Below are positions 6,317 through 36,919 of a stretch of 64,000 nt of DNA, piece after piece; position 1 is the stretch's first letter, and every line of letters begins with the position of its first letter. The notes below the pieces were generated by a model that was not told the origin of the DNA, made no database searches, and was given only the letters and a program-made list of their open reading frames with translations. The DNA is taken from IMG/VR virus record IMGVR_UViG_3300021431_002946, positions 289,291 through 353,290 of that record; one strand, 5' to 3'. This stretch comes from a virus (Duplodnaviria > Heunggongvirae > Uroviricota > Caudoviricetes). Made by a program: the position numbers and the translations under genes.

Positions 6317-6388
6317 GCTATAAAGTAATCATGAATCTGGAGGGAAATTATTTTAATGCATTTTAATATTGTAGAAAGGAGAAACTTA

Positions 6389-7432
6389 ATGAGAACAAAA
6401 AAATTAGTTGCATCAGCCTTAGCGATGATCGTTGTTTTTGTACTAAGCAGCTCAGTATTTGCAGCTCCAGAAGAATTTGAATTAAAATTCAAACAAACTT
6501 ATTTAGTTACAAATAATATGAGCATTGCAACTATTCCAGAATTAGATCCTTTTACATATACGATTTCAAATGATGTAGATACAAGTTTTACTACACTAAA
6601 TGGAATAAATCAAATCTATAAAGGTGATTTAAGTAAAGTTACTTTAAAAACTACTGAAATTGATCTTACTCAAGAAATTGAAGCTAATACTACTGAAGAA
6701 GTTAGTTATGACATAGATCTTGAATTTAGTAATTTTGATAAAGTAGGTATTTATAGATATAGATTAGATCGAAATGATGGAGAATATGTTTACTTCGATA
6801 TTTATGTATTCAATGAAAATGGTACTCCAACTGTTGGTGGATGTAATTTCTATTCTAAAATATTTAGTAATTCTGAACAACATAAAGTATTAGATTTCTT
6901 AGATAGATATGAAGTAAATCAAGAAGAACAACTTTCACATACTCAAAATTCAATTATTCGATTTGTTGATCAAACTGGTAAAAAGATAAGAAATGATATT
7001 ATCTTAATCAGAAATTATAAAGATCCAATTAAAGCACAAAAGCCTATTAAACTTGAGTCAAGAAAGAAAATGGCAATAATTGATAATGAGATTGAAATGG
7101 TTGATGTTGCAACAAATGTTGACGCATGCATTGCAGAATATAAATCAAGCTTAAAATCTTATTTGAATAAAGCATATAAACTTATATCTGACCAAGTTGC
7201 AGATAATCTTGCTTTAGAAGCACCTGCATGGTTCAGTGAAGATGATCCAGATGAAGTTTTAGTTTTCGTAGTTAAAATGAAAGCACCTCCTTCAGGATTT
7301 ATTGGGCCTGGCACAGGTGATGCATTTAATCCTGTTTATTACACTACAATTGCACTTCTTAGTACCGGTGCAACTGCTTGTGCAATAATATATATTCGTA
7401 AGAAAATTAAAAAAATAGAAAAAACTAATTAA
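6389..7432 (+). CDS. secreted cell-wall-anchored pilin-like protein (signal peptide, C-terminal xPGTG + TM + KKIKK tail)
   Basis: RBS-supported ATG at 6389. N-terminal signal peptide AMIVVFVLSSSVFA. C-terminus GPGTGD..hydrophobic..RKKIKKIEK. Confidence 0.6.
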   Translation: MRTKKLVASALAMIVVFVLSSSVFAAPEEFELKFKQTYLVTNNMSIATIPELDPFTYTISNDVDTSFTTLNGINQIYKGDLSKVTLKTTEIDLTQEIEANTTEEVSYDIDLEFSNFDKVGIYRYRLDRNDGEYVYFDIYVFNENGTPTVGGCNFYSKIFSNSEQHKVLDFLDRYEVNQEEQLSHTQNSIIRFVDQTGKKIRNDIILIRNYKDPIKAQKPIKLESRKKMAIIDNEIEMVDVATNVDACIAEYKSSLKSYLNKAYKLISDQVADNLALEAPAWFSEDDPDEVLVFVVKMKAPPSGFIGPGTGDAFNPVYYTTIALLSTGATACAIIYIRKKIKKIEKTN

Positions 7433-7452
7433 AATGAGAGGAATGTGAACAA

Positions 7453-8808
7453 ATGAAGAAAACACATCAAAGAATTACTAGAGGACTTGCGGCTGGTCTT
7501 TTAGTAGCAGCCTTAGCCGCAATGCCTGTTTCTGCTGCGCCTATTGGTAGTGATACTGGTATCGCTGAAGGTGGACCATCAGTAACAATTGATAAGGTTA
7601 TAGCTATTTATAATGATGGTTATAATAAGTCTTGGAATCCAGATGTAACTTATACATTTGAAGTTTCTGCAGCTACAGTTGATAACGTAACTGTTACAGA
7701 TAGTAATGGTACAGTTGTTACAGTTAAGCCTGGTGTAGCAGCAGCTATCGCAGGTCAGTCTGGTGGTAAAGCAACTGTAACTTGCGATTTTGCATCTGCA
7801 GAAGTTGTTGATACTACTTCTACTCTTGCAGAAGGTCTTAAGAGTACATTTGAGATTGGATTTGATGTAACAGCGTTTGCTACTACTGGTCCTGGTATTT
7901 ATCGTTTTAAGATTGACGATGTTACTCCTGCTGCAACTCTTTTAGCTGCTGGTATTGTAAGACCTGCAGGTTATGAAGCAACAAAGTATCTTGACGTTTA
8001 TGTTAAGACAGATACTGCAGATCCTACTCAGTTAGTAATTGATGGTTATGTATTAATTGATACTAATACATCTCTTGAACCTGATGATAGTCATAAGGAT
8101 CCTGGATTTAGACCTGTTGTTACAGAAACTCAGATTCCTGTACCTGGTACAACTATAGAACAACCTAGTGCTACTACATCTAGTTATGGTGTAACTGGTA
8201 TTAATGGTGATAATACATTTGACTATTATAAGACAGTTAACCTTACAGTAAGTAAAGATATTACTGGTAACATGGCAGATACATCTCATGCATTCCCATT
8301 TGTAATTGGTCTTACAAATCAGACTGGTGCAGCTGTTCCTGCTACTGTTTATGTAGGTAATGCTGCAAATGCATTAACTGGTAAAACTAATGCATCATTT
8401 AATGCTAACTTAGCAAAAGATGGAACTTATCTTGTATATGGTATCAATCCTCTTGCTACTGTTAATGTAAAAGAGACAAATGATACAAATGATACATATA
8501 GAGCCTCTATTAAAGTAAATGGTGCTGATGACGGTGCACAAACAGCTCTTGCACATGGAGATGAAAAAGCTATGACTGCTTTAGCAGTATCTGACTATGA
8601 TTCTTCTGCAGCTGCAGTTCCTGCAACTATTACAACAGCTAATGGTGCTAATGCTTCTGCTACTGCTGCATTTGAGAATAATCTTAATGCTGGTACACCT
8701 ACAGGTATCGCTCTTATGGTTGCTCCTTTTATTGCAATTGCTGCAGTAATTGCTACAATTTTTGGTATTAACAAAATTAAGACCAAGAAAGAGACTGACG
8801 CTGAGTAA
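7453..8808 (+). CDS. secreted pilin-like surface protein with sortase-type C-terminal sorting signal (TPTG)
   Basis: signal peptide LAAMPVSAAP; C-terminus GTPTG + hydrophobic stretch + NKIKTKKE tail; T/V/A-rich beta-rich body. Confidence 0.6.
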   Translation: MKKTHQRITRGLAAGLLVAALAAMPVSAAPIGSDTGIAEGGPSVTIDKVIAIYNDGYNKSWNPDVTYTFEVSAATVDNVTVTDSNGTVVTVKPGVAAAIAGQSGGKATVTCDFASAEVVDTTSTLAEGLKSTFEIGFDVTAFATTGPGIYRFKIDDVTPAATLLAAGIVRPAGYEATKYLDVYVKTDTADPTQLVIDGYVLIDTNTSLEPDDSHKDPGFRPVVTETQIPVPGTTIEQPSATTSSYGVTGINGDNTFDYYKTVNLTVSKDITGNMADTSHAFPFVIGLTNQTGAAVPATVYVGNAANALTGKTNASFNANLAKDGTYLVYGINPLATVNVKETNDTNDTYRASIKVNGADDGAQTALAHGDEKAMTALAVSDYDSSAAAVPATITTANGANASATAAFENNLNAGTPTGIALMVAPFIAIAAVIATIFGINKIKTKKETDAE

Positions 8809-8894
8809 GTTTTAATGTAAAGGACATTACTTGACATTATTTTAATAGTAATGTTGAGTAATGTCCTATTTTAAAAAAAAATAGGTACTAAAAT

Positions 8895-9401
8895 ATGAAA
8901 AAGTGTAAGGAATTTATAAAAAAGCATAATGAATTATTTCTAGCAATATTGAAATTAACAGTATTTGCATTGGCTTTATTTATATGTTTTGGAGTAATTT
9001 TAGGTATAAAGACAATGGATTCAGATTATATGCGTCCTGGATTAAAATATCGAGATAATGTAGTTTACTCTCGTTATGGAAATGATTATATTTTAAGGGA
9101 TATGATTATTTATGAATATGAAGGAAAATTATATTTTGGACGAATTGTTGGAATGCCTGGAGTAACGATTCGAACTGATGCTAACGGCAATATTTATCAG
9201 AATGATAATCTTGTATACGAAGAAAACATCAACTATACTTCTAAACGATCGATGGAAGTAGAGTTATCCTTAAAAGATGACGAGTATTTTGTTATATGCG
9301 ATAATCGTTCTCAAAATTTTGATAGTAGAAAGTTTGGACCTATTTCAAAAGATAAATTTAAAGGAAAAGTAATAATGGTGTTGAGGCGATTCGAAATATG
9401 A
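8895..9401 (+). CDS. signal peptidase I (S26) homolog, apparently non-catalytic (SipA/LepA-like pilus assembly factor)
   Basis: box D GRIVGMPGV and box E DNRSQNFDSR present. Box B Ser is Tyr (DYMRPGL) and box D Lys is Gly by hand alignment to SipS. Confidence 0.65.
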   Translation: MKKCKEFIKKHNELFLAILKLTVFALALFICFGVILGIKTMDSDYMRPGLKYRDNVVYSRYGNDYILRDMIIYEYEGKLYFGRIVGMPGVTIRTDANGNIYQNDNLVYEENINYTSKRSMEVELSLKDDEYFVICDNRSQNFDSRKFGPISKDKFKGKVIMVLRRFEI

Positions 9402-10114
9402 AATGGGAAAAAAGAGTACATAAAATCGTTTCTTTATTTATAGAAATATGTTGTGTTATTATTCTTTTACTCATGGGATATTTTATATATGACGTTATTA
9501 ATATACAAAGATCTGCTAATGTAGATAATTATATAAAAGAAATTAAACCAACCATAAATAAAGAAACAAAAGAAGTAGATTTATCAGCTTTACAAGCAAT
9601 AAATCCTGATGTTGTAGGTTGGTTAACTCTAGATGATACAAGAATTGATTATCCTGTTTTACAAGGTAATCCTGATTATACGTATTTAAATAGAGATATG
9701 TACGGTAATGTAAGTCTTACTGGTTCATTATTTATAAGTTATCAAGCAAATCGTTATTTTGAAGATGATTATACCATAATATATGGTCATCATATGGAAG
9801 CTGGCGGTATGTTTGGCGCAATAGATTATTATGAAGATGAAAACTATTTTAATGAACATTTAACAGGCACTCTAATTACTGAAAAGAAAATTTATGATTT
9901 AAAAGTACAAGCGTTAATATATTTAGACGCATATAGCGAAATATATTCTAAAAAAGATATAAAAACATTAAAAAAATTTATTAAAAACACAAAAAATTAC
10001 GAAGTCAAAATTGGTAACATAGAGATTACAGACAAGACTTTATTACTGTCTACCTGTGGTCCCAATGGAAACACAGATAGAATTATTTTAATATTAAGTA
10101 TGGAGGAAAGATAA
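9398..10114 (+). CDS. srtB: class B sortase
   Basis: N-terminal TM; DYPVLQG, IIYGHHM (His), LLLSTCGP (TLxTC Cys), downstream Arg. Confidence 0.85.
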   Translation: MKWEKRVHKIVSLFIEICCVIILLLMGYFIYDVINIQRSANVDNYIKEIKPTINKETKEVDLSALQAINPDVVGWLTLDDTRIDYPVLQGNPDYTYLNRDMYGNVSLTGSLFISYQANRYFEDDYTIIYGHHMEAGGMFGAIDYYEDENYFNEHLTGTLITEKKIYDLKVQALIYLDAYSEIYSKKDIKTLKKFIKNTKNYEVKIGNIEITDKTLLLSTCGPNGNTDRIILILSMEER

Positions 10115-13100
10115 TGCTAAAGACAAAAAGAAAACTTCTGGCAACACTTGTAGCATTCACATTAGTCATGACATCAATTATGCCTAATGTTGCTTTGGCG
10201 TTAGAGTCAGTAGAAGACACTCAGCCTACTACTAAGATTACAGAAACAGAGCCTGCTGCTTCTACAAAATCTACAAAAAAGCCAGAATCTTCAAAGCCTA
10301 AAGAAGCAAAAGAGGCAACTGAAGATACAACAAAAGCTACTTCTGAATCAACAAAGGCAACTTCAGAAACAACTAAAAAGCAAGTAGAAATAACTACTAA
10401 GGCTACTGAAGAAACTAAGGCTACTGAAGCTACTACTTCAGAGACCACTAAGACGTCAGAAGAGACTAAAGCTAGTGAATCTACTCCAAAGGAATCAACA
10501 GAAACTTCAGCTGAAACAGCAAGTACAACTGAAACTTCTGAGACTAAGGAGACTAAAGAAACTGCAGAAACAACTGTAGAAACTTCTGAATCTTCTAGTA
10601 ATACAGTACCTTTAGAGTCTACTACTGAGGAATCAAAGTCTTCTGAATCTACTACAGAAGAAACTATTCCTACTGAATCTGGAGAAGTTACTGAGTCTTC
10701 TGATCCTATTGAGAGCACAGAATCTACAGAGTCAACTGAGCCTACAGAGTCAACTGAAGAAACAGAACCTTCAGAGTCAAGTTCAGAAACTAGTGAACCT
10801 GAAGAAACAGAATTTAATCAGTCTATTACAGTAGATGGAATTAAGATTACTGTTACAGCTGATAAAGGTGTTTTCCCTAATGGAGCAGAATTAACTGCTA
10901 AAAAGGTTGAAAATAATAAAATTAATAAAGAAGATAACGTAGTTGCTTCTATGACTTTTGATATTGCTATTATGCTCAATGGAGAAGAAATTGAGCCTGA
11001 TACTACAAAGGGTCAAGTAAAAGTTACTTTCTTTGATGAAAGATTTGAAGATAAGAACTTAGACGCAGCTATTTACCATACTTCAGATGATAAAAAGACT
11101 GAGGAATTAAAGATTAAGAATGTTGAAGGTGGTGCTGAGGTTACTACTGATGGATTCTCTCTTTATACAGTCGAATTTACTTATGAAGATATGAAGTATA
11201 CTTTAACTGGATATGCTTCAGCTCCTCTTAAGACAATTCTTGAAAAAGTTGGTCTTACTGGTGAAGTTACAGACGTTAAAATAAGTAATGAAAAACTCGT
11301 TAGATATGAAAATGGTTATATCTTTGCAGTTAAAGCTTTCTCTACAAAAGAATGGATGAAAGTTACTATTAATGATATTACTTATATTATTACTCTTACA
11401 GATAGTCCTGACTCTCCTGAAGACGCTACTGCTGGAACTGATGCTTATGCAATTCTTTATGATTCTGGTAAATTAGTTTTCCAGAAAGGTCAAGATGTTA
11501 TTGGCGCTTATGGTACTAAGCAACAAGAATGGTTAGTTCCTACAGAATTTGTAGATAATTCTGATACTACAGATGTAGATGAATCTATTCCTGCTTGGTG
11601 TTCTTATGCAGAAAACATTAATAAAATCATATTTGTAGATAACATTAAGGGTATTACTTCTTTAAAGACATATTTTAAGGGTCTTAAAAATATTACTACA
11701 ATTTCTAATATTGATAGATTAGATGTTTCAACAGTTACTACTCTTAATGCTTTATTCATGGATTGTTCATCTATTACAATATTAGATTTATCATCTTGGA
11801 ATACTGCAAAAGTTACAGATATGTGCGCAATATTTAATGGATGTTCTTCATTAAAAACATTAAATTTATCTGGTTGGAATTTCAGAGGATTAAATTATGG
11901 TGGTGCATTTAGTGGTGCACTTAATGGATGTACATCATTAAAGACTTTAGATTTATCTAGTGTTAAAATGCCTGTAAAAACTTATGATGTAGGTTTATGC
12001 CTTGGTTGGCATGCTGCAGGTGGTGGAATAAATCTTGATAGTATTGATGTATCAAATATTGATTTAACACAGACTAAATCTTTGTATGGTTTCTTAACTA
12101 TTTCAGCAAAACAGATTATTGGTCTTACTACTTGGGATGTTTCTAGAGTAGAATGTATTAGTAGTTTGTTTAATGGAAATAATCTTGTTGAAAACATTGA
12201 TATTTCTGGTTGGGATTTAAGAAATATGACAAATACTAATGGTTCTGCAATATTTTCTGGTTGTGCTAATCTTAAGACATTAAATATGTCTAATGTAAAA
12301 ATGCCTGCTGATACTGGTGCATCTAATTTCCAATTAGGTTGGGGTAATATTGGTGGTACTTTAAATAGCATTAATGTTACTAACTTAGACTTATCAAATA
12401 CAACAAGTCTTTGTGGTTTCTTAACAGTTCCTGCTAAGAATATTATAGGTCTTGATACATGGGATACGTCTAATGTAACAAATTTCAATAGTTTATTTAA
12501 TGGTCAAAAATTTATTACTGAATTAGATTTATCTAATTTCACATTTAAATCAGGTGATACAGTTTATGCTATGTGTGCATCAATGCCTAAATTAACTAAG
12601 ATTATATTACCTGCATCATATAATAATTTAACCATTAATGAAGATAATAACATAAGTGTTTCTTATATTTGGACTAATGTAGAAACTGGAGAAAGTTTTA
12701 AAGCAGATCAAATTACTTCCGCTGGTACATATGAAAGAATTTTAGGTAATGATGCATATGTAAACACAAATGCTTATGCGATTCTTTATACAGATGGTAC
12801 ACTTATCTTCCAGAATAATGATGAAGTAGATTCTACACATGGTTCTGTAGTACAGACTTGGGAAGTTGATGAATCATCACATCCTTGGACTTCATCTGAA
12901 TATAAAGATCAAGTTACTAAAATTATTTTTGCAAATAAATTAATTGGTAGAACATCTGCGTACTATATGTTTAGTAATATGTCTAATTTAACTACAATTG
13001 AAAATTGTGGAAATTTAGATACTTCAAACATAACTACAATGAACTCAATGTTCTATAATGCTTGTAACTTAACATCTATTGATGTTTCAGATTGGGATAC

Positions 13101-16100: not shown

Positions 16101-19100
16101 TTCTTTAAATGATTATAGATATATGCTCTATAACTGTAATTTAATTCCTGAAGTAGATTTTAGTAATTGGGATTTATCTAGAACTGGTACAAATTCTAGA
16201 AGTGATTATGTATTTAATGGATGTGATAAACTCATAAAAATTACTTTACCTGCAAATTTTGTAGTTTATAGTTCTTCTTCATATGGTACTCCATTTAATT
16301 CAGATTGGATTTATACAAAAGATAATTCTGTTGTAAACTTACAAACTGAATTCTCTAATTGGACTGTTGATAAAGCTGGTACATATATAAAGAATTATTA
16401 TGTATCATTATATCCTATGGGTGGTACAGTTGATCCTACTAAGATTGAAACTAATTTGAATCAGTCTATAGACGAACTTCCTACACCTGTAAGAGATGGA
16501 TATAATTTCTTAGGTTGGTTTGATTCTGAAGGAACTCTTAGAACTTCAATTCCAGCTGGAGAGTATATAACTAGCTTATTTGCTCAATGGGAGTCAAAAG
16601 GAACTTATACATTAGTATTAGATCCTAATATTAATGGTTATGAACCTTATGTTGTAGAATTAAAACTTGATGAAAAGTTTAGACTTGATTATACTCTTTT
16701 AAATATTCCTGATTCATTTGAATTTAGTCAGTGGACAGAAAGAAAGAGTGGAGATGGTGAAGTTTATACTCAAAATCAAATCGTAGTTGGATTAGCTGAA
16801 CTTGGTGAAACAGTTACAATTTATGCACAGTGGATAACACATAGTTCATTCCCTGTAAAGATGCATGCAGTTAATATTTTAACTGGTGAAAGAACATCTC
16901 TTGGAAATGTAGATGTACGTACTAATGAATATTTTGATATTTCTGCTATAAAAAATATAGTTAAAAATAAAGTTGGTAATACATATATTTATTATGCATC
17001 TTATAGAAATGATTTAGATTGTGTACATTTTGAATATAATGAAGAAGATGTAATTCATTATGAGAATCAAGGTTATAATTCTGCGTATACAAATGCAGGA
17101 AAATCTACTGGTGAAGATTTCTATTATACATATGATAGAATAAAAGATGATAGAGGTCAATTTGTTAATTCTTCACATATGTGGACTTTAGATGATTTTA
17201 ATAATGATATATATGTTTATTATATACCTGCATTAAAAGCAAGAGTCTGGTTTAACAAAGAATCTGTATCTAAATTACCAGTAGATGAGCTTATTATGAC
17301 TGTCGATGGTAAACAATATAAATCTGGTGAATATGTATTTGATTTAGATAATTCTAGATTTTCACCTAGTGCAAGAGTAAGTATTGGTGAAGGATATGTT
17401 CCTTCTGCTTATGCTAATGCTCGTTGGGAATATTATACAGATTCACTTCTTAGAAATTTTGCATATATGATGGCAGAAGAAAAGAATTATTCATTTAATT
17501 ATCCTGTTTCATTAAATAATGCAAGAGAAGGTAAGGGTTGTCATAAGAGTGAAGAAGCTACAGGAATGAAGTATAGTTATTTGTGGTGGAATTCTCCTAA
17601 TGATATAATGGATATTAGTATTACATTTGATTTAAATGTAGTATATGATTTTAATAATTCTGGACAATATGCTGGTCCATCTGGTTTACAAGCAAGAAAT
17701 CTTTATACATATTATTCACAATATCCATATAGTATAGATAATATTACTCAGGTATATGGTATAACAGCAGAATCTAATGATGGTTATATTATTGAAGGTT
17801 GGTATACTGCGCCTGAAGGTGGTACTAAAGTATATGATCCTAATGCAGAATCATATAGAAATCCTATGACACCTCCTATAGACTTTTCTAATTGTCCAGT
17901 TGTAGATTATTCAGATAAATTAGACCAAATTAATAATGATATTTATGTATTTGGTGAACCTAGAATGACGCAAAATAAGTATGTTACTTTATATGCGCAT
18001 TGGGTTCCTAAGTCTGAATATAATGCAAGCTCATCACAATCTACATTTACAGTAATTCATATTAATGATTCACATAATCCAACTGTAACAGAATATGGAT
18101 ATTCACAAAAATTTGTAGCTCCAAATAAGCTTACAGATGTACGTTGGAATAGCTATATGGATGATAGTTGGTCTTATGTAGATAATCCAGATGAATCATA
18201 TTATTATGATGGTTATTGGACAATGGAGAAAGACTATGCTTGGGAGAAAGATCCAATAGAATTTGAAGATCATATCTTTGGTGGATGGTACACAGAACCT
18301 AATGGTCAAGGCACAAAAATTACAAAAGATATGATAATAACTGAAACTGGCGATATTACATTCTATGCATATTGGAAGAAACCTACTGAAAAGATTAATT
18401 TTAGTCTTGAAACAAATGGAGATCATCCAACTAGTGCTGAAATTAAGTTTAGTAATACAGCATATTCAAATTATTATTATATTACACCTACTACTGCATA
18501 TATTTATGGTGCAGACACAGTAGCTGGTTATATGATTCCTTATGCTATGACTGATGAAGAGTATGATTTTATTGGTTGGTATGATTCAAATAATCATAAA
18601 CTTGAAGTTGGTGATACATTTGTAGATGGTGCAACTTATTATGCTAAATGGGAAAAGAATATTGTTTCAGTTGAAGGTATAGATTATGATTTTAATTTTA
18701 CTTTCAAAAATAGCAAAAATAAGATGAAATTAAGTAATCCTTATATTTCAAATGCATCTATAGATATATTATTTAAAATTAGTCATACAGAAAATATTTT
18801 ACCTGAAAAAGCTATTAAAATCTATATACCTACTACAAATATTTTAAATACATCTGTTATTAGTTATAATGGTGATTTAGAAAATGGTAAATACTATAGG
18901 TATGATAATCCATCTTATGATGAGACTACTTATAATAATTATAATTGTATGATTTGTAATGCATATGATATTACAGGTAGTGCTGGTTTTACTAATGAAA
19001 AATCTAATGTTTCAATTGAAGAAGATGGCTCTGGTATACAATTCTATGATGCAGATGGTAATATATATAAACCTGGAAAAGATTATTATTCTAAAGTATA

Positions 19101-22100
19101 TAAATCAGATCCTATTATATTAACTATTGATACAAATGGAGATGGTACTCCTGATATAGTTAAGTATAAATATTTATATATTGAAAGTGATCCTATTACA
19201 GGTGCTGGCGTATCTAATTTTGATAATATTAATATTAATGGTTATATAACTAAAACTTGGAATTCTGAGTGGGGTGAAGAACCTGCAGACGCTAGCGATT
19301 ATCTATTTGTAACATGGCAAATTAGTAATACATATCTTGATATGTATGATCGTACACAGTATTATAATAACCAAGACATGTATTTCTTTGCAAATACTAA
19401 GTTACCTATAACCAGTGCTGGTCAAAAAGTATATAATAAGCAAGTTGAACATAATGGAGAAAATTATGAATTTGCATTTTCTGTACTTGCAAAACCAGGT
19501 AATTATAGTACTCAAGAAACACATTCTGAGAATAATACTATTGTTATGAAATATCCTAAGTCTCAGTTTAGTTATGATGCGCAATTAGGTGAAATTTCTC
19601 AGCAATTTGAGATTTTAGTATCACCAAGAAATCCTTATATTAATGGTCAATGGTATGAAGATACTGTTATTAAGACTGGTAAGGTTACTTGGAGTTGGGC
19701 TGAAGGTTCATCTGAAACCAATGGTCGTGATATGTGGGCTAATATGGGACGTTTCAGCGGTGGTTATGTAAGTTCTGTAAATAGTAGAAATACTATTCAG
19801 AAACAAAGACAATATGCTGTTTTAAATAACACTCTTGAAATGGAATGGTATAGCTTATATGCCCAGAGAATTATTAATGGTAATGATGAATTTAGTGTTT
19901 CAGTAAAACCTGGAGATTTCTCTTATGCTTCAGGTGCTTCAGAAAATTGTTATATGTGGCAACCTGCAACTGGAAGAACAGATTTAAGTACATATGATTA
20001 TTGTATTACTGGAATTCAATACGCTGTATTTAATGGTTATTCTGAAAAGTTAAATGATGGTTATGATCCTAATGTACCTATATATGTTGGAGATATTCAA
20101 GAAGTTAACAGAAATAAATATGTTGAAATCTATGTAATGTATAGAGGTTCTAATACTTGGACTTTACTTGATAAAAATGGTTCTGTTTGGAGTGCGCCTT
20201 CTAACTTAAGGTCTTATAATGATGGACATGTTAATGTTCAATTTAATCGTGGTTATTCTCGTAATTTCGATTCTGATGAATGGGAATACGGTGAACCTTA
20301 TAGTTATATTTATGATACTAGAGTTGTTGGTGTTAAAGTTAAAGCTAAGTTTGAAACTGGATCTAATTATCAAGCTGTAGTTGTTGTTCCTAAGATTAAA
20401 ATTTTCCCTAGCTTTACAACACAAGACAAAGTTAAAATGGACTTTGATCAAGAAGTAAAATCTGCTATTACTATGACTGACTTTACAATTGATGGTTATA
20501 AGTCTAATGCATCTTATAGAAAAGGACAATGGTCTGATGTTACTGGTGCAATTACTGATTTAGGTCTTACTACTTGGTATCTTACTTCAGATGTTACTGA
20601 TCTTGATTTAAGAAATAATATTAAAACATTAAATCTTAATACAGGCAATGTAAGTGGTCTTGAAGAAGGAGATGCACAGGTTGTTTGTGAAGTTATAAAT
20701 CAGGCGCAAAATAGTACATATTACAAAGCAATTACTTCTGGTGATTATTATGTATTATTACCTGAAAATACTTCACTTAAGTTAGCTGAAACATACTTTG
20801 CTGGTACTAGTTATGCAAATTCAAGCTATTTTACAAATACAGATATAAATAGCTGGAATTATGGTGGATTAAGTTATGACAGTATGGGCGGATTAACTCC
20901 AGAAGAATGTAGTGTTGAAACTATTGAAAACTGGGAAAATAGTGGTAGAACAATGGTTATTTATCATCTTAAAGATTTAACTAAGAAATATACTGAAATA
21001 GATTTATCTCATTATAATAGTTTAATCTTTAAATTAACACTTCATAGAGAGAATGAAGATATTTATGGTATTAATGGTGATGTTGCAACTCTCTTTGTAG
21101 ATAAGTCTGGTACTTTCTACATAAATAGAAGAGAAAAGTATGAAAATGCTGGTGCAACTGTACATGAATACTTTAGTAACTTAAATTCTCAAAATGCAGC
21201 TAAAGAAAGATCTATGGCTTATGCTTATGCTGACTTTACTTTCTATACTGAAATCTATAATACTGGTTCCGGTAATGAAAATATGGCGCATCAAGATGGA
21301 TTTAATGATTATGTTGCAAATAGTTCAAATCAATATACTAATAATGTAAATGTTTTCCCTGGTGAAAACTATACATATAAAGTTCTTTGGTCACAAAGCG
21401 GTAAGAAGATTATCGATTATGGAGATCATACAGATGAAATTGATAATGAAACTAATAATGCAATAATTTATACAAGACTTGATGGTGTTGGTGTATTTAA
21501 AGGCGTTTATGCACCTGCTATAACAGGTAAAGTTTATTTAGATGATGAACATTTAACATCAGAAAATGTAACTGTTACACCTACTATCTGGTACTGTAAA
21601 GATCCTAATTTTGCAAGTATAAATAATTTTGCTGATTATGATTTAAGCACAATTATTTTAGATGCAGATCACGGTTGGTATACTTCTGCAAATCTTGATA
21701 GTGATGCTAAGGTATATGGAATGGCATTTGATTATTCTAAAGATAGTCAAGGCAGAGATGTATATCTTGCAGGTGATAAATTTATTGGTATTACTATTTA
21801 TCAACAGAATTTAGAGTTAGCAAATCAAACATTTAATAGTGAGAGTAGAATTTCTATTACAAACTTTAATAGTGCTGATTATGGTGGATTAGTAACAGTT
21901 AATGTAGCTATTCCTGACCTTAAGATTGATGTAGTTTCAAATCCTGCGTCTGGTACAGCAACTAATCCTACTGCAGTTCGTTATGAACAAGACTTAGTTT
22001 ATACTTGGACAGTTCATAATAGAGAAGATAGAGCTATTAATGATGTTATAGTTTCATTTAAGGTTCCTGATGCAACTACTTGTACATTAGATAAAATTAA

Positions 22101-22476
22101 AGTTGGTAATATCTCTATAACAGATTCTATTGCTATTAAAAATGCTACACTTGAAAATGGTATAGTTACACTTACTATTAAGACATTAAGTGCAAATGAA
22201 GATTTTGTAATAACTGAAAATACTTATGTATCTACAGGTGAAAATGGAATTATGATTACAAATCAAGGTTTCATTAATGGATATAATGGAATAATTCCTA
22301 CTGATACTCAAATAGATGCAATGAAATCAGATATTACATATCATATTACATTAACAATGCCTGAACCTACAGGTATAGTATTAAACGTAATGCCTTATGC
22401 TTTAATCTTTGGTGCAATCTGCGTAACATTCTTTGTTTCAAAGAAAACATTAAAGAAAAAAGAAGAAGAGGAATAA
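10114..22476 (+). CDS. giant (4120 aa) sortase-anchored adhesin: S/T/E-rich stalk, 4 BspA/DUF285-type LRR modules, Listeria-Bacteroides repeats, DUF11-like domain, C-terminal PEPTG sorting signal
   Basis: Uninterrupted 12.4-kb ORF. Signal peptide; WDxSNVTxMxxMF repeats; FxGWYTxxxGxxxxxYAKW repeats x5 or more; C-terminus PEPTG + TM + KKTLKKKEEEE. Confidence 0.85.
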   Translation: MLKTKRKLLATLVAFTLVMTSIMPNVALALESVEDTQPTTKITETEPAASTKSTKKPESSKPKEAKEATEDTTKATSESTKATSETTKKQVEITTKATEETKATEATTSETTKTSEETKASESTPKESTETSAETASTTETSETKETKETAETTVETSESSSNTVPLESTTEESKSSESTTEETIPTESGEVTESSDPIESTESTESTEPTESTEETEPSESSSETSEPEETEFNQSITVDGIKITVTADKGVFPNGAELTAKKVENNKINKEDNVVASMTFDIAIMLNGEEIEPDTTKGQVKVTFFDERFEDKNLDAAIYHTSDDKKTEELKIKNVEGGAEVTTDGFSLYTVEFTYEDMKYTLTGYASAPLKTILEKVGLTGEVTDVKISNEKLVRYENGYIFAVKAFSTKEWMKVTINDITYIITLTDSPDSPEDATAGTDAYAILYDSGKLVFQKGQDVIGAYGTKQQEWLVPTEFVDNSDTTDVDESIPAWCSYAENINKIIFVDNIKGITSLKTYFKGLKNITTISNIDRLDVSTVTTLNALFMDCSSITILDLSSWNTAKVTDMCAIFNGCSSLKTLNLSGWNFRGLNYGGAFSGALNGCTSLKTLDLSSVKMPVKTYDVGLCLGWHAAGGGINLDSIDVSNIDLTQTKSLYGFLTISAKQIIGLTTWDVSRVECISSLFNGNNLVENIDISGWDLRNMTNTNGSAIFSGCANLKTLNMSNVKMPADTGASNFQLGWGNIGGTLNSINVTNLDLSNTTSLCGFLTVPAKNIIGLDTWDTSNVTNFNSLFNGQKFITELDLSNFTFKSGDTVYAMCASMPKLTKIILPASYNNLTINEDNNISVSYIWTNVETGESFKADQITSAGTYERILGNDAYVNTNAYAILYTDGTLIFQNNDEVDSTHGSVVQTWEVDESSHPWTSSEYKDQVTKIIFANKLIGRTSAYYMFSNMSNLTTIENCGNLDTSNITTMNSMFYNACNLTSIDVSDWDTSKVTNFRWMFGCDDNAANNSKLVSVIGAKNLIKVAATAANAMFNNNYSLKNIDTSNWNMSNITNTSSMFAQCDALTSLNTTNWNMSNNTNMYAMFYDSNSLKTVDISNWNISSNMTNTSWSFTRTKVTSLDMSNWNMSNVTDTYYMFGGCNDLTSVKLGANWKFATNNSSGTFGYNPTFKNSSNEYVQMSDIYSWDSSKADTYIICATVGENAYALLYGDGYLVFQKGPTPDPNHGELIASWAVKDANYDWTGYSSNIKYVDFKDEIYGRTSTDHMFNECVYLNEVYNAQKLDMSQVTNMSFMFAYDKQLTKINGLEQWKPSNCTEFNYAFGSYNAEGTKLTEIDMSNWQINEVHQLFRMFENCSNLRVIDLSGFNCVSGYACDNMVNGCKSLSKIILPESIAVYSENNRTRIGLNSSSQTWLKDGTTVVDYQEAIVGGTYEKILNVVTFKKDSDAANDVIFYITETNTSFEIPDELKTLPNNTEGEAFIGWYDGQDNKYTNENITRNTPSTLYAKFGHAPQDAIYGDDLYKLLYIDANNQYVVVYQKGNTPTSGYGTFVSSTLVTTSQSNEYVNGVYTPVTILDFDSYTTNNYSNMPTKVVFRDRLINLPKADVRFTSERVKKYENLDYIDMSNATGIRFSNKSNVYGCSGMATWNTTNITNMYQLFYNTKVATTDIPNLSNWNTSNVTNLSYAFYSTNGEVKGLESWNTSNVTDMSYIFYSANMLNTDSIKDWNVSKVKKFKSAFSSNTALLEAELNWDMRSAEDMSYMFDSCYKLSKIKTNKTFIATANTNNINHIFYCCDKLTDITDLAKWDVSNVTDMSYAFANCNKLAIINALSGWDVSNVTTMKHMFSAFANASYDTWSGYDAERGPGNLVDLSALSNWQTSSLTDISFMFYCQAYLNNINGISGWDVSHVTDMTATFCGLSRLTSLEALSSWTTSSLTKLCSTFKGMYALKSVDGLENWDVTNVTDMSFMLDLRYYANSLRDVSALSNWHANSLNDYRYMLYNCNLIPEVDFSNWDLSRTGTNSRSDYVFNGCDKLIKITLPANFVVYSSSSYGTPFNSDWIYTKDNSVVNLQTEFSNWTVDKAGTYIKNYYVSLYPMGGTVDPTKIETNLNQSIDELPTPVRDGYNFLGWFDSEGTLRTSIPAGEYITSLFAQWESKGTYTLVLDPNINGYEPYVVELKLDEKFRLDYTLLNIPDSFEFSQWTERKSGDGEVYTQNQIVVGLAELGETVTIYAQWITHSSFPVKMHAVNILTGERTSLGNVDVRTNEYFDISAIKNIVKNKVGNTYIYYASYRNDLDCVHFEYNEEDVIHYENQGYNSAYTNAGKSTGEDFYYTYDRIKDDRGQFVNSSHMWTLDDFNNDIYVYYIPALKARVWFNKESVSKLPVDELIMTVDGKQYKSGEYVFDLDNSRFSPSARVSIGEGYVPSAYANARWEYYTDSLLRNFAYMMAEEKNYSFNYPVSLNNAREGKGCHKSEEATGMKYSYLWWNSPNDIMDISITFDLNVVYDFNNSGQYAGPSGLQARNLYTYYSQYPYSIDNITQVYGITAESNDGYIIEGWYTAPEGGTKVYDPNAESYRNPMTPPIDFSNCPVVDYSDKLDQINNDIYVFGEPRMTQNKYVTLYAHWVPKSEYNASSSQSTFTVIHINDSHNPTVTEYGYSQKFVAPNKLTDVRWNSYMDDSWSYVDNPDESYYYDGYWTMEKDYAWEKDPIEFEDHIFGGWYTEPNGQGTKITKDMIITETGDITFYAYWKKPTEKINFSLETNGDHPTSAEIKFSNTAYSNYYYITPTTAYIYGADTVAGYMIPYAMTDEEYDFIGWYDSNNHKLEVGDTFVDGATYYAKWEKNIVSVEGIDYDFNFTFKNSKNKMKLSNPYISNASIDILFKISHTENILPEKAIKIYIPTTNILNTSVISYNGDLENGKYYRYDNPSYDETTYNNYNCMICNAYDITGSAGFTNEKSNVSIEEDGSGIQFYDADGNIYKPGKDYYSKVYKSDPIILTIDTNGDGTPDIVKYKYLYIESDPITGAGVSNFDNININGYITKTWNSEWGEEPADASDYLFVTWQISNTYLDMYDRTQYYNNQDMYFFANTKLPITSAGQKVYNKQVEHNGENYEFAFSVLAKPGNYSTQETHSENNTIVMKYPKSQFSYDAQLGEISQQFEILVSPRNPYINGQWYEDTVIKTGKVTWSWAEGSSETNGRDMWANMGRFSGGYVSSVNSRNTIQKQRQYAVLNNTLEMEWYSLYAQRIINGNDEFSVSVKPGDFSYASGASENCYMWQPATGRTDLSTYDYCITGIQYAVFNGYSEKLNDGYDPNVPIYVGDIQEVNRNKYVEIYVMYRGSNTWTLLDKNGSVWSAPSNLRSYNDGHVNVQFNRGYSRNFDSDEWEYGEPYSYIYDTRVVGVKVKAKFETGSNYQAVVVVPKIKIFPSFTTQDKVKMDFDQEVKSAITMTDFTIDGYKSNASYRKGQWSDVTGAITDLGLTTWYLTSDVTDLDLRNNIKTLNLNTGNVSGLEEGDAQVVCEVINQAQNSTYYKAITSGDYYVLLPENTSLKLAETYFAGTSYANSSYFTNTDINSWNYGGLSYDSMGGLTPEECSVETIENWENSGRTMVIYHLKDLTKKYTEIDLSHYNSLIFKLTLHRENEDIYGINGDVATLFVDKSGTFYINRREKYENAGATVHEYFSNLNSQNAAKERSMAYAYADFTFYTEIYNTGSGNENMAHQDGFNDYVANSSNQYTNNVNVFPGENYTYKVLWSQSGKKIIDYGDHTDEIDNETNNAIIYTRLDGVGVFKGVYAPAITGKVYLDDEHLTSENVTVTPTIWYCKDPNFASINNFADYDLSTIILDADHGWYTSANLDSDAKVYGMAFDYSKDSQGRDVYLAGDKFIGITIYQQNLELANQTFNSESRISITNFNSADYGGLVTVNVAIPDLKIDVVSNPASGTATNPTAVRYEQDLVYTWTVHNREDRAINDVIVSFKVPDATTCTLDKIKVGNISITDSIAIKNATLENGIVTLTIKTLSANEDFVITENTYVSTGENGIMITNQGFINGYNGIIPTDTQIDAMKSDITYHITLTMPEPTGIVLNVMPYALIFGAICVTFFVSKKTLKKKEEEE

Positions 22477-22491
22477 GTTAGCTTAATTAAA

Positions 22492-22525
22492 TAGGAGAGT
22501 CATTAATTTGGCTCTCCTATTTTTA
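22492..22525 (+). terminator. intrinsic terminator after the giant gene
   Basis: TAGGAGAG..CTCTCCTA + T5. Confidence 0.7.
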
Positions 22526-22621
22526 ATTTAGTAACAAATTTTTAATAGTCTATTTAATTATAATATAGTGTATGTAAAAATAAAAAATTTTTAAAATTTT
22601 TTAAAAATCGATAAAAAGTTA

Positions 22622-22650
22622 TTTACATACCAAAGATAATTATATATAAT
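22622..22650 (+). promoter_or_regulatory. TTTACA-N17-TATAAT promoter
   Basis: exact consensus spacing. Confidence 0.6.
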
Positions 22651-22705
22651 ACAATTATAAGCTAATTAAAAATTTAGAAATCTAGCTGAAAAGGAGATTT
22701 ACAAT

Positions 22706-23731
22706 ATGAAGAAGATTATTCAGAATTCAAAGAGAGGTTTTACCCTTGTAGAGATGCTTCTTGTAATTGCAGTTATTGTAATTCTGTCTGGCGTAACTAT
22801 CGTTGGTATTAGAGCAATGATTGATAATGCAAACAAGAATGCTGCAGCAGTTGAACTCCATGCAGGTTGTTGGTATGTAGAAGATCCGAATGGTTCTACA
22901 ATATTGCCTGGTACAACTACAAAAATTCGAGTTGTAGATAGAAATACGCCTGGCGCTCAGTATTATAGCGATATGGACGCTATGTACGCACAGGTAAAAA
23001 GTATTCAGGGAACAGTACCTAACATAGAGCCTGAGCATGCACATGTAAATACTGGTGATGATGGATTCGACGATGAATGGTGGGCAAAGAATGATGCGGA
23101 TTGGCAGAAGCAGATTGATGATTTGATTAAGGCTGGATGCCCTCAGGATCAGATTAAGGTTGTTAGAAATACGGAAGGTCATATCGTTGGTGTAAGTACA
23201 GATTGGAAGCCTGATTCTAATTCTGGAAATTCTGGTAACAATGATGCTAATACAGGATCAAATGGTTCTGGTAATTCTGATTCAAATACTGGAAACAATA
23301 CTGGTTCAAATACAGGTTCTAATACTGGAAACGGTGATGCAAACACAGGTTCAAATGGTTCTGGTAATACTGGTAATACTGGTAATACCGGTAATACCGG
23401 TAATACAGGCAATACTGGAACACAGTCTTCTGGAGCAATTACAGTTCCTAATACTGTAACATCTGGTACAGGTGTTAAGAATTTTACAAATAATAATGAT
23501 GGAACAACTACTGCAACATTAATTCTTAATACTTATAATACTGGTGAAGTTAAGTTTAGAACAAATCCTGATGGTACTCACTCAATTTATTGTGTAGGCA
23601 AGGATGGTCATACTGTTGTAGGTAATGTAATTGGTTATACACAGGATAATCAGTGGTGTAATGAAAATACTTGGATTAAGTTAACACCTGCAGATTGGGC
23701 TAAGCTTTCATCAAGTTACGGATTTAATTAA
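22706..23731 (+). CDS. type IV pilin/pseudopilin-like protein (prepilin N-terminal methylation motif) with G/N/S/T-rich repeats
   Basis: KRGFTLVEMLLVIAVIVILSG class III signal; (GNT)n low-complexity segment. Confidence 0.7.
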   Translation: MKKIIQNSKRGFTLVEMLLVIAVIVILSGVTIVGIRAMIDNANKNAAAVELHAGCWYVEDPNGSTILPGTTTKIRVVDRNTPGAQYYSDMDAMYAQVKSIQGTVPNIEPEHAHVNTGDDGFDDEWWAKNDADWQKQIDDLIKAGCPQDQIKVVRNTEGHIVGVSTDWKPDSNSGNSGNNDANTGSNGSGNSDSNTGNNTGSNTGSNTGNGDANTGSNGSGNTGNTGNTGNTGNTGNTGTQSSGAITVPNTVTSGTGVKNFTNNNDGTTTATLILNTYNTGEVKFRTNPDGTHSIYCVGKDGHTVVGNVIGYTQDNQWCNENTWIKLTPADWAKLSSSYGFN

Positions 23732-23754: not shown

Positions 23755-23786
23755 AAAGAGGTAGCATTAAGCTACCTCTTTTTTAT
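23755..23786 (+). terminator. intrinsic terminator
   Basis: AAGAGGTAGC..GCTACCTCTT + T-run. Confidence 0.7.
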
Positions 23787-25232: not shown

Positions 25233-25306
25233 TGAGGTGTGGTGTAGCGGCAGCACACGGGTCTTTGACACCCTTGGTGTAGGTTCAACCCCTACCACCT
25301 CAGCCA
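25233..25306 (+). tRNA. tRNA-Gln (anticodon UUG)
   Basis: Hand-folded cloverleaf. Acceptor TGAGGTG/CACCTCA, D-stem GTGT/GCAC (one GU), anticodon loop CTTTGAC, T-arm GTAGG-TTCAACC-CCTAC, discriminator G, encoded CCA. Confidence 0.8.
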
Positions 25307-25310
25307 AAAT

Positions 25311-25386
25311 GCTCCAGTAGCTCAGTTGGTAGAGCAATAGACTTTTAATCTATGGGCCGTGCGTTCGAACCGCATCTGGGGCACCA
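25311..25386 (+). tRNA. tRNA-Lys (anticodon UUU)
   Basis: Acceptor GCTCCAG/CTGGGGC, D-arm GCTC-AGTTGGTA-GAGC, anticodon arm ATAGA-CTTTTAA-TCTAT, T-arm GTGCG-TTCGAAC-CGCAT, discriminator A, encoded CCA. Confidence 0.85.
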
Positions 25387-35629: not shown

Positions 35630-35633
35630 AATA

Positions 35634-36856: not shown

Positions 36857-36890
36857 TTAGACTAAAATTACAATTTATTTACAAAAAATA

Positions 36891-36919
36891 TTTACGCATT
36901 TAAAAAAGTATATTATAAT
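36891..36919 (+). promoter_or_regulatory. TTTACG-N17-TATAAT promoter (a second TTTACA -35 lies 13 nt upstream); the -10 ends 11 nt before the ATG, so the mRNA is probably leaderless
   Basis: motif read directly. Confidence 0.55.

Follow-up and report, generated by a model that had tools for sequence, protein, structure and literature searches.

The window, that is, the whole stretch of 64,000 nucleotides analysed here, contains five genes that run in one direction and form a single cassette at 6389-22476 (gene calls on the window), which is where the first-pass annotation had placed them. In order, they encode a minor pilin candidate, ORF1 (6389..7432, + strand, 347 aa), the backbone or major pilin (7453..8808, +, 451 aa; PF24547, DUF7601), a SipA/LepA-type inactive signal peptidase I homologue (sipA; 8895..9401, +, 168 aa; Peptidase_S26), a class B sortase (srtB; 9398..10114, +, 238 aa; TIGR03064), and a giant surface protein and adhesin candidate (10114..22476, +, 4120 aa; DUF285, Flg_new). 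ORF1 has an alternative start at 6356, which would extend it to 358 aa, but the ATG at 6389 has a better ribosome-binding site (aaaggag) than the ATG at 6356. The sipA and srtB genes overlap, as do srtB and the giant gene, with ATGA overlaps at both ends of the sortase gene, and the sortase is translationally coupled to both neighbours. A terminator scan found one terminator-like hairpin with a 20-bp stem immediately 3' of the pilin gene (8822..8866, +) and another at the end of the pilus operon (22489..22522, +). The first is a possible attenuator that may raise pilin stoichiometry.

A gene for a type IV prepilin-like protein follows (22706..23731, +, 341 aa). The protein carries a cleavage-type motif, KRG/FTLVEM, with N_methyl and TIGR02532 matches, and the gene contains a (GNT)n repeat (period 9, 6.4 copies, 23361-23418). 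It has its own promoter-like site (22622-22650, 11/12) and, in the terminator scan, its own terminator-like hairpin (23755-23781). It appears to be a separate transcription unit, adjoining the pilus operon but outside it; the earlier description of the gene and its repeat was correct, whereas its inclusion in the locus appears not to be. A prepilin-like gene also lies 3' of the giant gene in one relative (L040), but not in another (L037), and the prepilin-like homologues are conserved only in about the N-terminal third.

Components of the cassette

The pilin matched the DUF7601 profile at 2e-12 and consists of a signal peptide and two Ig-like beta-sandwich domains (residues about 43-202 and 257-410). 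The AF2 model of the 7453-8808 protein (pLDDT 73.9) shows the pilin-like fold that had been proposed for it: it is of the PitB/Spy0128 type, with best Foldseek matches to PitB (7e-15), then to the S. pyogenes T-antigens/Spy0128 (~1e-14, TMt 0.62). The pilin-family profile agrees, matching T-antigens over both domains (5.6e-19 and 3.9e-10). Across 25 sequences, K48, D156, D257, K268, E341, N409, T417, and G418 were invariant, and K215, K268, E341, and N409 are invariant in bacterial homologues too. N409 lies nine residues ahead of G418, and K268/E341/N409 are in register with K179/E258/N303 of Spy0128. The N-domain triad is non-canonical, with Asp156 replacing the Glu and Asp257 replacing the Asn of the T-antigens. 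The canonical YPKN pilin motif is absent from the pilin; the best candidate for the linking lysine is the invariant Lys215 (KDPGF), which is carried on a 50-residue loop.

ORF1 is secreted, and its N-domain resembles that of a pilin. Its residues 54-155 aligned with the pilin N-domain when the two families were compared (hhalign, probability 97.4%, E 1.1e-11), while Pfam, PHROG, and PDB searches returned no match and the AF2 model reached a pLDDT of 33. The family is small, with 19 representatives among 1.84 billion proteins, and several of its members have Pro/Thr-rich tails or a SpaA domain ahead of the sorting motif. We treat ORF1 as a candidate basal or minor pilin whose pilin nature is partly shown.

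The S26 homologue matched Peptidase_S26 at 3.5e-16, and its best PDB matches were SipA (4n31, 6e-12) and LepA (4k8w, 1e-10). Tyr45 occupies the position of the catalytic Ser and Gly82 that of the catalytic Lys; Gly at the latter position is common to all phage and bacterial homologues. Absence of the Ser/Lys dyad is the defining trait of the SipA pilus assembly factor (PMC7900414), and the description of this protein as a SipA-like inactive signal peptidase was confirmed. The same holds for the class B sortase, which scores 156.5 bits with TIGR03064, above the cut-off of 153.75. A membrane anchor lies at its N terminus, and its triad consists of His131, Cys220, and Arg228; this triad, which the first-pass annotation had reported as kept, is invariant on alignment with phage and bacterial homologues. 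The closest PDB entry was 3psq, Spy0129 (1.3e-29), the class B sortase that polymerises pili in S. pyogenes and has the residues His126/Cys221/Arg229 (PMC3019223), followed by 4y4q (2.3e-26), labelled 'Sortase, SrtB family.' An identical sortase protein occurs on 11 contigs.

From N- to C-terminus, the giant protein comprises a signal peptide, a T/E/S/K-rich spacer, multiple PARCEL/DUF285 leucine-rich modules, Listeria-Bacteroides repeats, a beta-rich C-terminal part, and a PEPTG signal. DUF285 matched at 5e-109 in 11 stretches, and Flg_new and TIGR02167 matched as well. The 12.4-kb ORF is intact, orthologues of 2618-4347 aa hold the same gene position in relatives, and residues ~480-1040 are hypervariable between near-identical strains. 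The length of the proposed tip adhesin was upheld, and its sorting signal is of the pilin's own type; we consider the protein a candidate for that role.

To find sorting signals, we took every stop-to-stop ORF of 60 aa or more from either strand of the whole window, 183 in all, and looked for a motif with a hydrophobic stretch (15 residues or longer) and a K/R tail behind it. Only three of the 183 had this tripartite signal: ORF1, the pilin, and the giant protein. The same scan found no second sortase-like motif in the window. The pilin (GTPTG) and the giant protein (PEPTG) have the common signal xxPTG[I/V]xLxxxP[F/Y], and giant residues 4063-4118 match the sorting-signal region of the pilin-family profile with 24.9 bits. 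ORF1 instead has IGPGTGD, a signal of the PxTG[D/E] class in the LPXTG register, followed by a transmembrane segment and a K-rich tail; P307, T309, G310, and D311 are invariant in a six-sequence alignment, and T309 and G310 across 17 family members. All three signals that the earlier note had grouped as xPTG type are real, but the grouping fits only the pilin and the giant protein. The division parallels the two sorting-signal classes of FctA/Cpa and FctB (PMC7900414). Because its signal is LPXTG-like, unlike those of the other two, ORF1 is suggested to be the base pilin.

Carrier genome and conservation

Over the ~12 kb compared, the window agrees with ENA ERZ12302815 NODE_7 (466,645 bp) at 100% protein-level identity. 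Just upstream is an array of 41 tRNAs, and there are two more tRNAs besides. PHROG matches include a UvsX-like recombinase, DnaB, a DnaC-like loader, a resolvase, and a NinI-like phosphatase; downstream are a primase and split RNAP beta/beta' genes, which show weak similarity to the RNAP beta of jumbo phages. The genes are all co-directional, the GC content is about 29%, and there are no housekeeping genes. PcfJ, IS605 TnpB, and DUF932 are also present, and UvsX relatives (72-74% identity) are found on IMG/VR viral genomes of 290-394 kb. Carriage on a mobile element was borne out more strongly than proposed: the carrier is a phage-like genome of ~467 kb, of the huge-phage kind, from gut or rumen metagenomes. 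In the ~84 kb examined of the ~467 kb we found no gene for a capsid, terminase, portal, or tail protein, so that the carrier's status as a virus rests on indirect signs.

The five genes keep this order in L007, L008, L037/L038, and L040, at 36-63% identity. Such cassettes are present in no fewer than four divergent lineages that look phage-like. Between two strains, its dN/dS is 0-0.25, and the cassette is under purifying selection. Scans of IMG/VR gave no sortase relative and a single pilin relative, which lies on an unrelated 169-kb contig. The large viral contig L035 carries a lone pilin homologue and no sortase. The cassette may be accessory, because it was undetected on the IMG/VR contigs that hold this clade. 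Pilin-sipA-srtB loci homologous to it are common in the chromosomes of rumen and gut Clostridia, with identities of 23-44% and GC contents of 37-60%, against 30-33% in the cassette.

Proposed assembly and alternative explanations

Based on gene content, protein families, catalytic and non-catalytic residues, pilin fold, matched sorting signals, conservation, and phage-like context, we consider it probable that 6389-22476 is an operon for a SipA-dependent, class B sortase-assembled pilus on a ~467 kb huge phage of Gram-positive rumen or gut Clostridia. The pilus would be of the type of S. pyogenes FCT-2/3/4 and S. pneumoniae PI-2, and the FCT-type reading of the first-pass annotation is supported: each component that it named agrees with the FCT / PI-2 type. 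Within infected or carrier cells, where the locus would be expressed, host Sec would export ORF1, the pilin, and the giant protein, which would stay tethered to the membrane through their C-terminal anchors. The phage sortase (Cys220/His131/Arg228) would cut between the Thr and Gly of the shared xxPTG signal, aided by the inactive peptidase homologue as chaperone or scaffold. It would link the Thr of the giant protein first, then Thr417 of successive pilins, to a lysine of the next pilin, for which we favour Lys215, as its loop matches the position of the Spy0128 Lys161 loop. ORF1 would be added last as base subunit, with linkage to peptidoglycan probably via a host sortase; since the window encodes no housekeeping sortase, anchoring would depend on the host. 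The end product would be a fibre on the infected cell, tipped by a leucine-rich-repeat adhesin of 4120 residues. The virus probably gives its host cell a new set of surface structures, and adhesion, aggregation, or exclusion may be the pay-off.

The same genes could instead yield monomeric surface proteins, with the pilin-like protein and the giant one attached to the wall by the sortase and no polymerised pilus. Class B sortases do anchor monomers too, such as haem-uptake proteins and the C. difficile SrtB substrates with (S/P)PxTG; the pilin has no canonical YPKN motif and an atypical N-domain isopeptide triad, and polymerisation is a step that we infer. We nevertheless regard this explanation as unlikely: the nearest relatives are all pilus components (PitB/Spy0128, SipA/LepA, Spy0129), inactive peptidases of the SipA type are not known in any role but pilus assembly (PMC7900414), the loop with the invariant Lys215 is the counterpart of the one that carries the linking lysine in Spy0128, and the two signal classes mirror a shaft/tip versus base arrangement.

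It is also quite improbable that the pilus locus is ordinary bacterial cargo of a giant plasmid, another extrachromosomal element, or a host chromosome. The absence of virion genes from the ~84 kb inspected, the occurrence of PcfJ, IS605 TnpB, and DUF932 on plasmids and conjugative elements, and the chromosomal homologues in Clostridia metagenome-assembled genomes (MAGs) would all fit such a carrier, but the 41-tRNA array with two more tRNAs, the PHROG matches, the split multisubunit RNAP genes, the co-directional, ~29% GC gene set with no housekeeping genes, the relatives catalogued in IMG/VR as viral genomes, and the low GC of the cassette point to a phage. That a phage recently captured the cassette as a non-functional passenger, now decaying, is hardly credible. 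The IMG/VR contigs of this clade on which it was undetected and the solitary pilin homologue of L035 would fit it; against this, the 12.4-kb ORF is unbroken, the catalytic residues do not vary, dN/dS is low, gene order is kept at 36-63% identity in several lineages, and composition fits the phage, not the bacterial homologues.

Comparison with known pilus systems

The S. pyogenes FCT-2/3/4 order is cpa - sipA/lepA - fctA/tee - srtC1/2 - fctB. Like the phage cassette, these islands have a two-domain FctA-type backbone pilin, an inactive SipA/LepA homologue, a class B pilus sortase (Spy0129) with the His-His / Cys-x7-Arg layout, and xxPTG signals on shaft and tip, a third, small protein bearing an LPXTG-like one (PMC7900414). 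The phage gene order differs (minor pilin, pilin, sipA, srtB, adhesin), and a 4120-aa PARCEL/DUF285 leucine-rich-repeat protein takes the place of the thioester-domain Cpa as adhesin. In the phage pilin, the loop with the candidate linking Lys (KDPGF) is enlarged to ~50 residues, the N-domain has Asp/Asp instead of the Glu/Asn of FctA, and only ~13-17% of the sequence is identical to that of streptococcal pilins. FctB is smaller than ORF1, which has an extra domain, and the locus lies on a putative huge phage, not a chromosomal island.

Pilus islet 2 of S. pneumoniae / S. oralis has the order pitA - sipA - pitB - srtG1 - srtG2. It is likewise SipA-dependent with a class B type sortase, and no structure matched the pilin model better than its PitB (7e-15), although the phage pilin superposes worse on PitB than on T-antigens (TM 0.27-0.35 versus 0.62). 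The phage locus differs in its tip protein, its single sortase, and its carrier.

The uncharacterised loci in Clostridia MAGs (Eubacterium, Eubacteriaceae, Ruminococcus, Dorea) share the core order (DUF7601 pilin, S26, class B sortase), an S26 homologue without the catalytic Lys, and the conserved pilin residues Lys215, K268, E341, and N409. A Flg_new-repeat adhesin often adjoins their core genes, but at 1.5-1.7 kaa it lacks the DUF285 arrays of the phage giant. These loci adjoin housekeeping genes (for example ffh, rimM, and trmD), and some have two S26 genes and two pilins. Because such loci are common in Clostridia chromosomes, the type of system is not new; only the carrier and the adhesin are. 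We found no precedent in the literature for a phage-carried sortase pilus operon. Prophages do encode sortase substrates, as in S. aureus SasX, a phage-supplied wall-anchored protein that alters host adhesion. SasX-type phages supply a single LPXTG substrate and depend wholly on the host sortase, whereas here sortase, assembly factor, shaft pilin, and adhesin are all phage-borne.

Gene content and layout of the operon

The 64-kb window has a GC content of ~29%, and all of its convincing genes lie on the + strand. Six consecutive genes span 6356–23731. The first, ORF1 (6389–7432, +), begins at a start codon with a strong ribosome-binding site (aaaggag), and a further ATG lies upstream at 6356. 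It is followed by a 451-aa pilin (7453–8808, +; PF24547 DUF7601, 2e-12), a 168-aa SipA-like protein (8895–9401, +; Peptidase_S26, 3.5e-16; TIGR02227, 8e-23), a 238-aa class B sortase (9398–10114, +), and a giant protein of 4,120 aa (10114–22476, +) with eleven DUF285/PARCEL stretches (5e-109) and Listeria-Bacteroides repeats (Flg_new). The sixth gene (22706–23731, +) encodes a 341-aa type IV prepilin-like protein with a prepilin N-methylation domain and a (GNT)n repeat at 23361–23418. The SipA-like gene sits between the pilin and sortase genes and overlaps the start of the latter; the sortase gene overlaps that of the giant protein, which is translationally coupled to it. Hairpins lie 3′ of the pilin gene (8822–8866, with a 20-bp stem) and 3′ of the giant gene (22489–22522).

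All stop-to-stop ORFs of 60 aa or more in the window, 183 counting both strands, were scanned for a tripartite C-terminal sorting signal. Just three carried one: ORF1, the pilin, and the giant protein. Because these are exactly the three proteins that the first-pass annotation had picked out by reading the sequence, the observation is real and not a chance pattern. No second sortase-like motif was present in any of the 183 ORFs.

The same annotation had counted the type IV pilin-like gene as part of the locus. Its prepilin domain and repeat are as described, but its membership is not borne out: the gene has its own promoter-like site (22622–22650, 11/12 matches) and its own hairpin (23755–23781), both identified as consensus matches only, and no genes for type IV pilus machinery were found in the 64-kb window. 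In L040, one of the related loci described below, a type IV prepilin-like gene (10001–10966) again follows the giant gene (4,040 aa); at this place L037, a more distant relative, has a gene for a metallophosphatase. Homologues of the prepilin-like protein conserve only about its N-terminal third (76–82% identity over 28–31% of the query), and their C-terminal parts differ. We treat this gene as a neighbor of the pilus operon with a separate role.

Predicted assembly proteins and their substrates

The sortase narrowly exceeded the curated cut-off of the class B profile TIGR03064 (156.5 vs 153.75 bits, residues 5–231), and all 15 of its matches in the PDB were class B sortases or labeled as such. 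The top solved structure was 3psq (1.3e-29), which is Spy0129, the Streptococcus pyogenes class B sortase that polymerizes the Spy0128 pilin using the catalytic residues His126, Cys221, and Arg229 (PMC3019223). His131, Cys220, and Arg228 of the phage sortase align with these residues and are unchanged in the four homologues aligned, among them two divergent ones from phages and one from a bacterium, which upholds the earlier reading of an intact His/Cys/Arg triad. The two enzymes also have in common a His-His doublet and an 8-residue spacing from Cys to Arg. The neighbors of the sortase gene encode an FctA-type pilin and a SipA homologue; this setting and the top match to Spy0129 are indirect signs that make the enzyme a candidate pilin polymerase of the Spy0129/SrtC1 type, which would form Thr-Lys isopeptide bonds.

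The S26-family protein was correctly recognized as an inactive signal peptidase of the SipA kind. Its closest PDB matches were SipA (4n31, 6e-12) and LepA (4k8w), with true signal peptidases trailing at ~1e-3. The position of the catalytic Ser is occupied by Tyr45 (Asp in SipA) and that of the catalytic Lys by Gly82, within a GRIVG sequence matching the GRI context of SipA. Among phage and bacterial homologues, the Ser position holds Tyr, Asp, or Asn and the Lys position always holds Gly. The SipA/LepA proteins of FCT-2/3/4 and PI-2 pili have likewise lost their catalytic residues and are needed for assembly beside a class B sortase, and these two traits define them (PMC7900414).

Searching 5.8 billion proteins for relatives of the pilin gave 24 that were full-length, at 30–89% identity and nearly all metagenomic. 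The AF2 model of the pilin (mean pLDDT 73.9) contains two beta-sandwich domains of the Ig-like, CnaB type (residues ~43–202 and ~257–410, block means mostly 76–95), joined by a disordered loop of ~50 residues. Backbone pilins led the Foldseek comparison of this model with the PDB, with PitB from pilus islet 2 at 7e-15 and the S. pyogenes T-antigens/Spy0128 at ~1e-14 (target TM 0.62); next in rank were two tip proteins, Cpa and PitA. The pilin family profile detected both domains of the T-antigens by sequence alone (5.6e-19 and 3.9e-10) and also matched the C-terminal domain of Cpa (4e-8). The protein ends in a sorting signal of the xVPTG kind, followed by a transmembrane segment and a basic tail; its motif is GTPTG, with GPPTG, LPPTG, PSVTG, and ISPTG as family variants in which TG is fixed.

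All 25 aligned family sequences share residues K48, D156, D257, K268, E341, N409, T417, and G418. In the published numbering of Spy0128, the C-terminal domain residues K268, E341, and N409 fall in register with K179, E258, and N303, the two Asn residues each lying 9 residues before the Gly of the sorting signal; the C-domain triad, a candidate for an intramolecular Lys-Asn isopeptide bond with a catalytic Glu, is therefore canonical. In the N-terminal domain, K48 and D156 align with K36 and E117, and D257 with N168, both 11 residues before the second-domain Lys. Phage-type pilins thus carry an invariant Lys/Asp/Asp triad there, in contrast to the Lys/Glu/Asn of FctA.

The interdomain loop contains K215, in a K[D/E/T]xG[F/Y] motif (KDPGF) immediately after a GYVL strand, at the position of the Lys161 loop in Spy0128. 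K215 is nearly invariant in the 25-sequence alignment, being deleted in one relative (P0024), and is invariant in a 7-sequence alignment with bacterial homologues, one of which Pfam calls FctA. We infer that it is a candidate for the inter-subunit lysine that would accept the Thr of the next subunit. With its enlarged lysine loop and the Asp/Asp pair in its N-domain triad, the family is a naturally occurring version of the FctA scaffold and may interest isopeptide chemists.

The C-terminal 56 residues of the giant protein (4063–4118) score 24.9 bits against the sorting-signal region of the pilin profile and share its signature PTG[I/V]xLxxxP[F/Y]; the pilin and the giant protein therefore bear the same kind of signal. 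The xPTG type had been assigned to all three substrates, which holds for these two but not for ORF1, whose family has the motif PxTG followed by D or E (IGPGTGD, IHPRTGD, TPKTGD, PPKTGD, NPKTGE) in the LPXTG register, with T and G invariant. The search of the giant protein with the pilin profile matched the sorting-signal region only, with no DUF7601 or pilin-like domain within the protein, and no domain homology to Cpa or PitA was found. Its shaft-type signal, its DUF285/PARCEL and Flg_new domains, and the location of its gene within the operon make it a candidate tip adhesin, a match of role and not of family. Between the window and a strain on a 380-kb contig, the giant protein keeps at least 93% identity outside residues ~480–1040 (nt ~11550–13230), within which identity drops to 43–74% and the length differs by 228 residues; the flanking genes are 94–100% identical. 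This variable segment falls in the first LRR modules. The pattern points to an exchange of modules or to diversifying selection on a region that binds, and the segment is a likely determinant of specificity.

ORF1 had been described as a second pilin-like substrate alongside the 7453–8808 protein. This description is only partly supported because the homology detected lies in the N-domain (residues 54–155 against the pilin N-domain, hhalign probability 97.4%, E 1.1e-11) and its AF2 model, built from a 4-sequence alignment, failed (pLDDT 33). ORF1 itself had no match in Pfam, NCBIfam, PHROG, or the PDB, and its family has just 19 representatives among 1.84 billion proteins. Tails rich in Pro and Thr occur in many members, and Pro-rich tails are frequent among small basal pilins of the FctB kind. 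When 17 members were scanned with Pfam, SpaA was found in three, and the only other match was MucBP_2 at a non-significant E of 0.098. In FCT pili, the class B sortase acts on xVPTG motifs in FctA and Cpa, whereas FctB, the base pilin, has a canonical motif that serves the housekeeping sortase (PMC7900414). The phage locus resembles these pili in having two classes of sorting signal, one for shaft and tip and one for the third protein, and by this analogy ORF1 may be the base pilin, in the role of FctB.

The carrier genome and relatives of the locus

An identical sortase protein was found on 11 contigs, one of them the 380,505-bp contig used for the strain comparison. The DnaB and PcfJ proteins from the ends of the window also occur on NODE_7 of ENA assembly ERZ12302815 (466,645 bp, 61x coverage), whose cassette region has 100% protein identity to the window over the ~12 kb compared. 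In the 10 kb upstream of the window, this contig holds 41 tRNA genes (flank region L013, 1–9539), which with the tRNA-Gln and tRNA-Lys inside the window (25233–25386) makes 43 in all. Downstream lie a primase, a DUF932 gene, and, in flank region L010 (14680–20983), an IS605-family TnpB (OrfB_IS605 / Cas12f1-like TNB) followed by two RNA polymerase genes, with beta (Rpb2_6) and beta′ (Rpb1_2) domains. The beta fragment is weakly similar to RNA polymerase beta of phiKZ-like jumbo phages. In L011, the flank from another strain, TnpB is accompanied by a Y1 transposase. PHROG matches within the window include a UvsX-like recombinase, DnaB, a DnaC-like loader, a Holliday-junction resolvase, and a NinI-like phosphatase. 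Relatives of the UvsX protein with 72–74% identity occur on IMG/VR viral genomes of 290,311, 331,944, and 394,266 bp.

Several other genes were observed in the window. A 615-aa protein (37491–39338, +) fuses a family 2 glycosyltransferase (Glyco_tranf_2_3, 1e-31) to a PgaD-like domain (1e-10, residues 472–595). It looks like a PgaC-PgaD-type synthase of a PNAG-like exopolysaccharide, which would give the carrier a second surface or biofilm function. A set of NAD-related genes (40846–42063, 43042–43551, 46521–47762, and 39372–39926) comprises a nicotinate phosphoribosyltransferase, an isochorismatase-family (nicotinamidase-like) protein, a cytidylyltransferase-like/NAD synthase fusion, and a Tpt1/KptA RNA 2′-phosphotransferase. 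Two adjoining SPFH/Band 7 membrane proteins (30637–31656 and 31676–32533) form an HflK/HflC-like pair. Five consecutive genes at 34453–37472, each encoding ~180–210 aa, appear to be a tandem paralogous family, as their N-termini are alike by eye (MKYT.E.I..II.DY..L...). A 622-aa ORF (25690–27558, +) had no Pfam or PHROG match; L040 has a 621-aa gene at a similar relative position.

The five-gene order (ORF1-like, DUF7601 pilin, S26, sortase, giant) recurs in at least four related loci, such as L007, L008, L037/L038, and L040, at 36–63% protein identity. Their giant proteins range from 2,618 to 4,347 aa and contain DUF285 and Flg_new. The context of these relatives is phage-like, with many small, unannotated, co-directional genes, and the L007 contig is 128,850 bp long. 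Among bacteria, with one genome per GTDB species, 13 loci were found in rumen and gut Clostridia MAGs (Eubacterium, Eubacteriaceae, Ruminococcus, and Dorea), with pilin identities of 23–32%, identities of 27–44% across the three proteins, and GC contents of 37–60%. Where the genes were found they shared the pilin-sipA-srtB order, and this type of locus therefore belongs natively to the group of likely hosts. One MAG locus adjoins ffh, rimM, and trmD and has a Flg_new adhesin and a second pilin annotated as FctA; another distant member of the pilin family adjoins a two-component system and thiF/thiS. The copies in phages are thus not recent captures but old relatives adapted in composition.

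Further searches of viral sequences yielded little. A megablast of window positions 1–25000 against GenBank phages gave no match. The top tblastn match of the sortase, MT836522.1 (39.5%), was set aside as a GC-rich, unannotated fecal contig with no visible cassette. A sortase pattern scan of IMG/VR found no relative, and a pilin-profile scan found one lone pilin at 31% identity (L035, 10001–11011; IMGVR_UViG_3300021399_000004, 169,338 bp). The neighbors of this pilin are gyrB, gyrA, an AAA_24 protein, and DnaB; sipA and sortase genes are absent nearby.

Interpretation and comparison with known pili

The best-supported interpretation is a working FCT/PI-2-type pilus operon carried by a huge phage. 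One alternative is that the carrier is not a virus. Because no capsid, portal, terminase, or tail gene was present in the ~84 kb of the 466,645-bp contig covered (the window and ±10 kb), we infer its viral status from other traits: a genome above 200 kb, phage replication and recombination genes (UvsX, DnaB, primase), a large tRNA array, its own split RNA polymerase, and IMG/VR relatives of 290–394 kb. No housekeeping genes were seen in the carrier sequence inspected. The evidence weighs against a non-viral carrier, and the first-pass proposal of a phage or phage-plasmid is in line with this; we consider it very probable that the carrier is a virus, and its profile is that of a huge phage.

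The cassette could also be a decaying passenger, or its products could be anchored to the wall as monomers without polymerization. Against decay, cassette dN/dS values between the window and the 380-kb strain are 0–0.25, and the sortase proteins are identical at a dS of 0.02; purifying selection keeps the pilus set in several divergent phage-like lineages. The evidence as a whole, with a Spy0129-like sortase, a SipA-like partner, and a candidate linking lysine in an FctA-type shaft pilin, weighs against monomeric anchoring. We rejected a role of the fiber as part of the virion: each of the three substrates has a Sec signal peptide and a membrane anchor and would be exported, whereas virions assemble in the cytoplasm.

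The phage-encoded pilus would instead be built on the outside of an infected cell. We tentatively propose, as a possibility we consider rather unlikely in its full form, that the phage builds its own pilus with a fast-diversifying LRR adhesin and, together with the PgaCD-like synthase, sticks the infected cell to plant fiber or to uninfected hosts, steering transmission or blocking superinfection. If true, this would be a viral "extended phenotype" that acts through a complete Gram-positive surface organelle and not through a single conversion gene. Provided that these genomes belong to phages and that the locus is expressed, huge phages in the rumen or gut can use a whole organelle to change how their hosts adhere. 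This would add to the cellular functions known from huge phages and suggest how pilus loci and giant adhesins could spread among Clostridia.

Sortase-assembled pili are usually regarded as chromosomal or island-borne colonization factors of Gram-positive bacteria. Here, a full set comprising a shaft pilin, an assembly factor, a sortase, a candidate base pilin, and a 4,120-residue adhesin lies on a phage-like genome of ~467 kb. Our full-text searches, whose coverage was incomplete, returned no account of a phage-borne sortase pilus locus, nor of a sortase on huge, jumbo, or mega phages or on rumen viral contigs. Compared with known systems, the pilus type itself, with its SipA protein and class B sortase, is familiar; the novelty is in what carries it, in the giant adhesin with its LRRs, and in certain features of the pilin.
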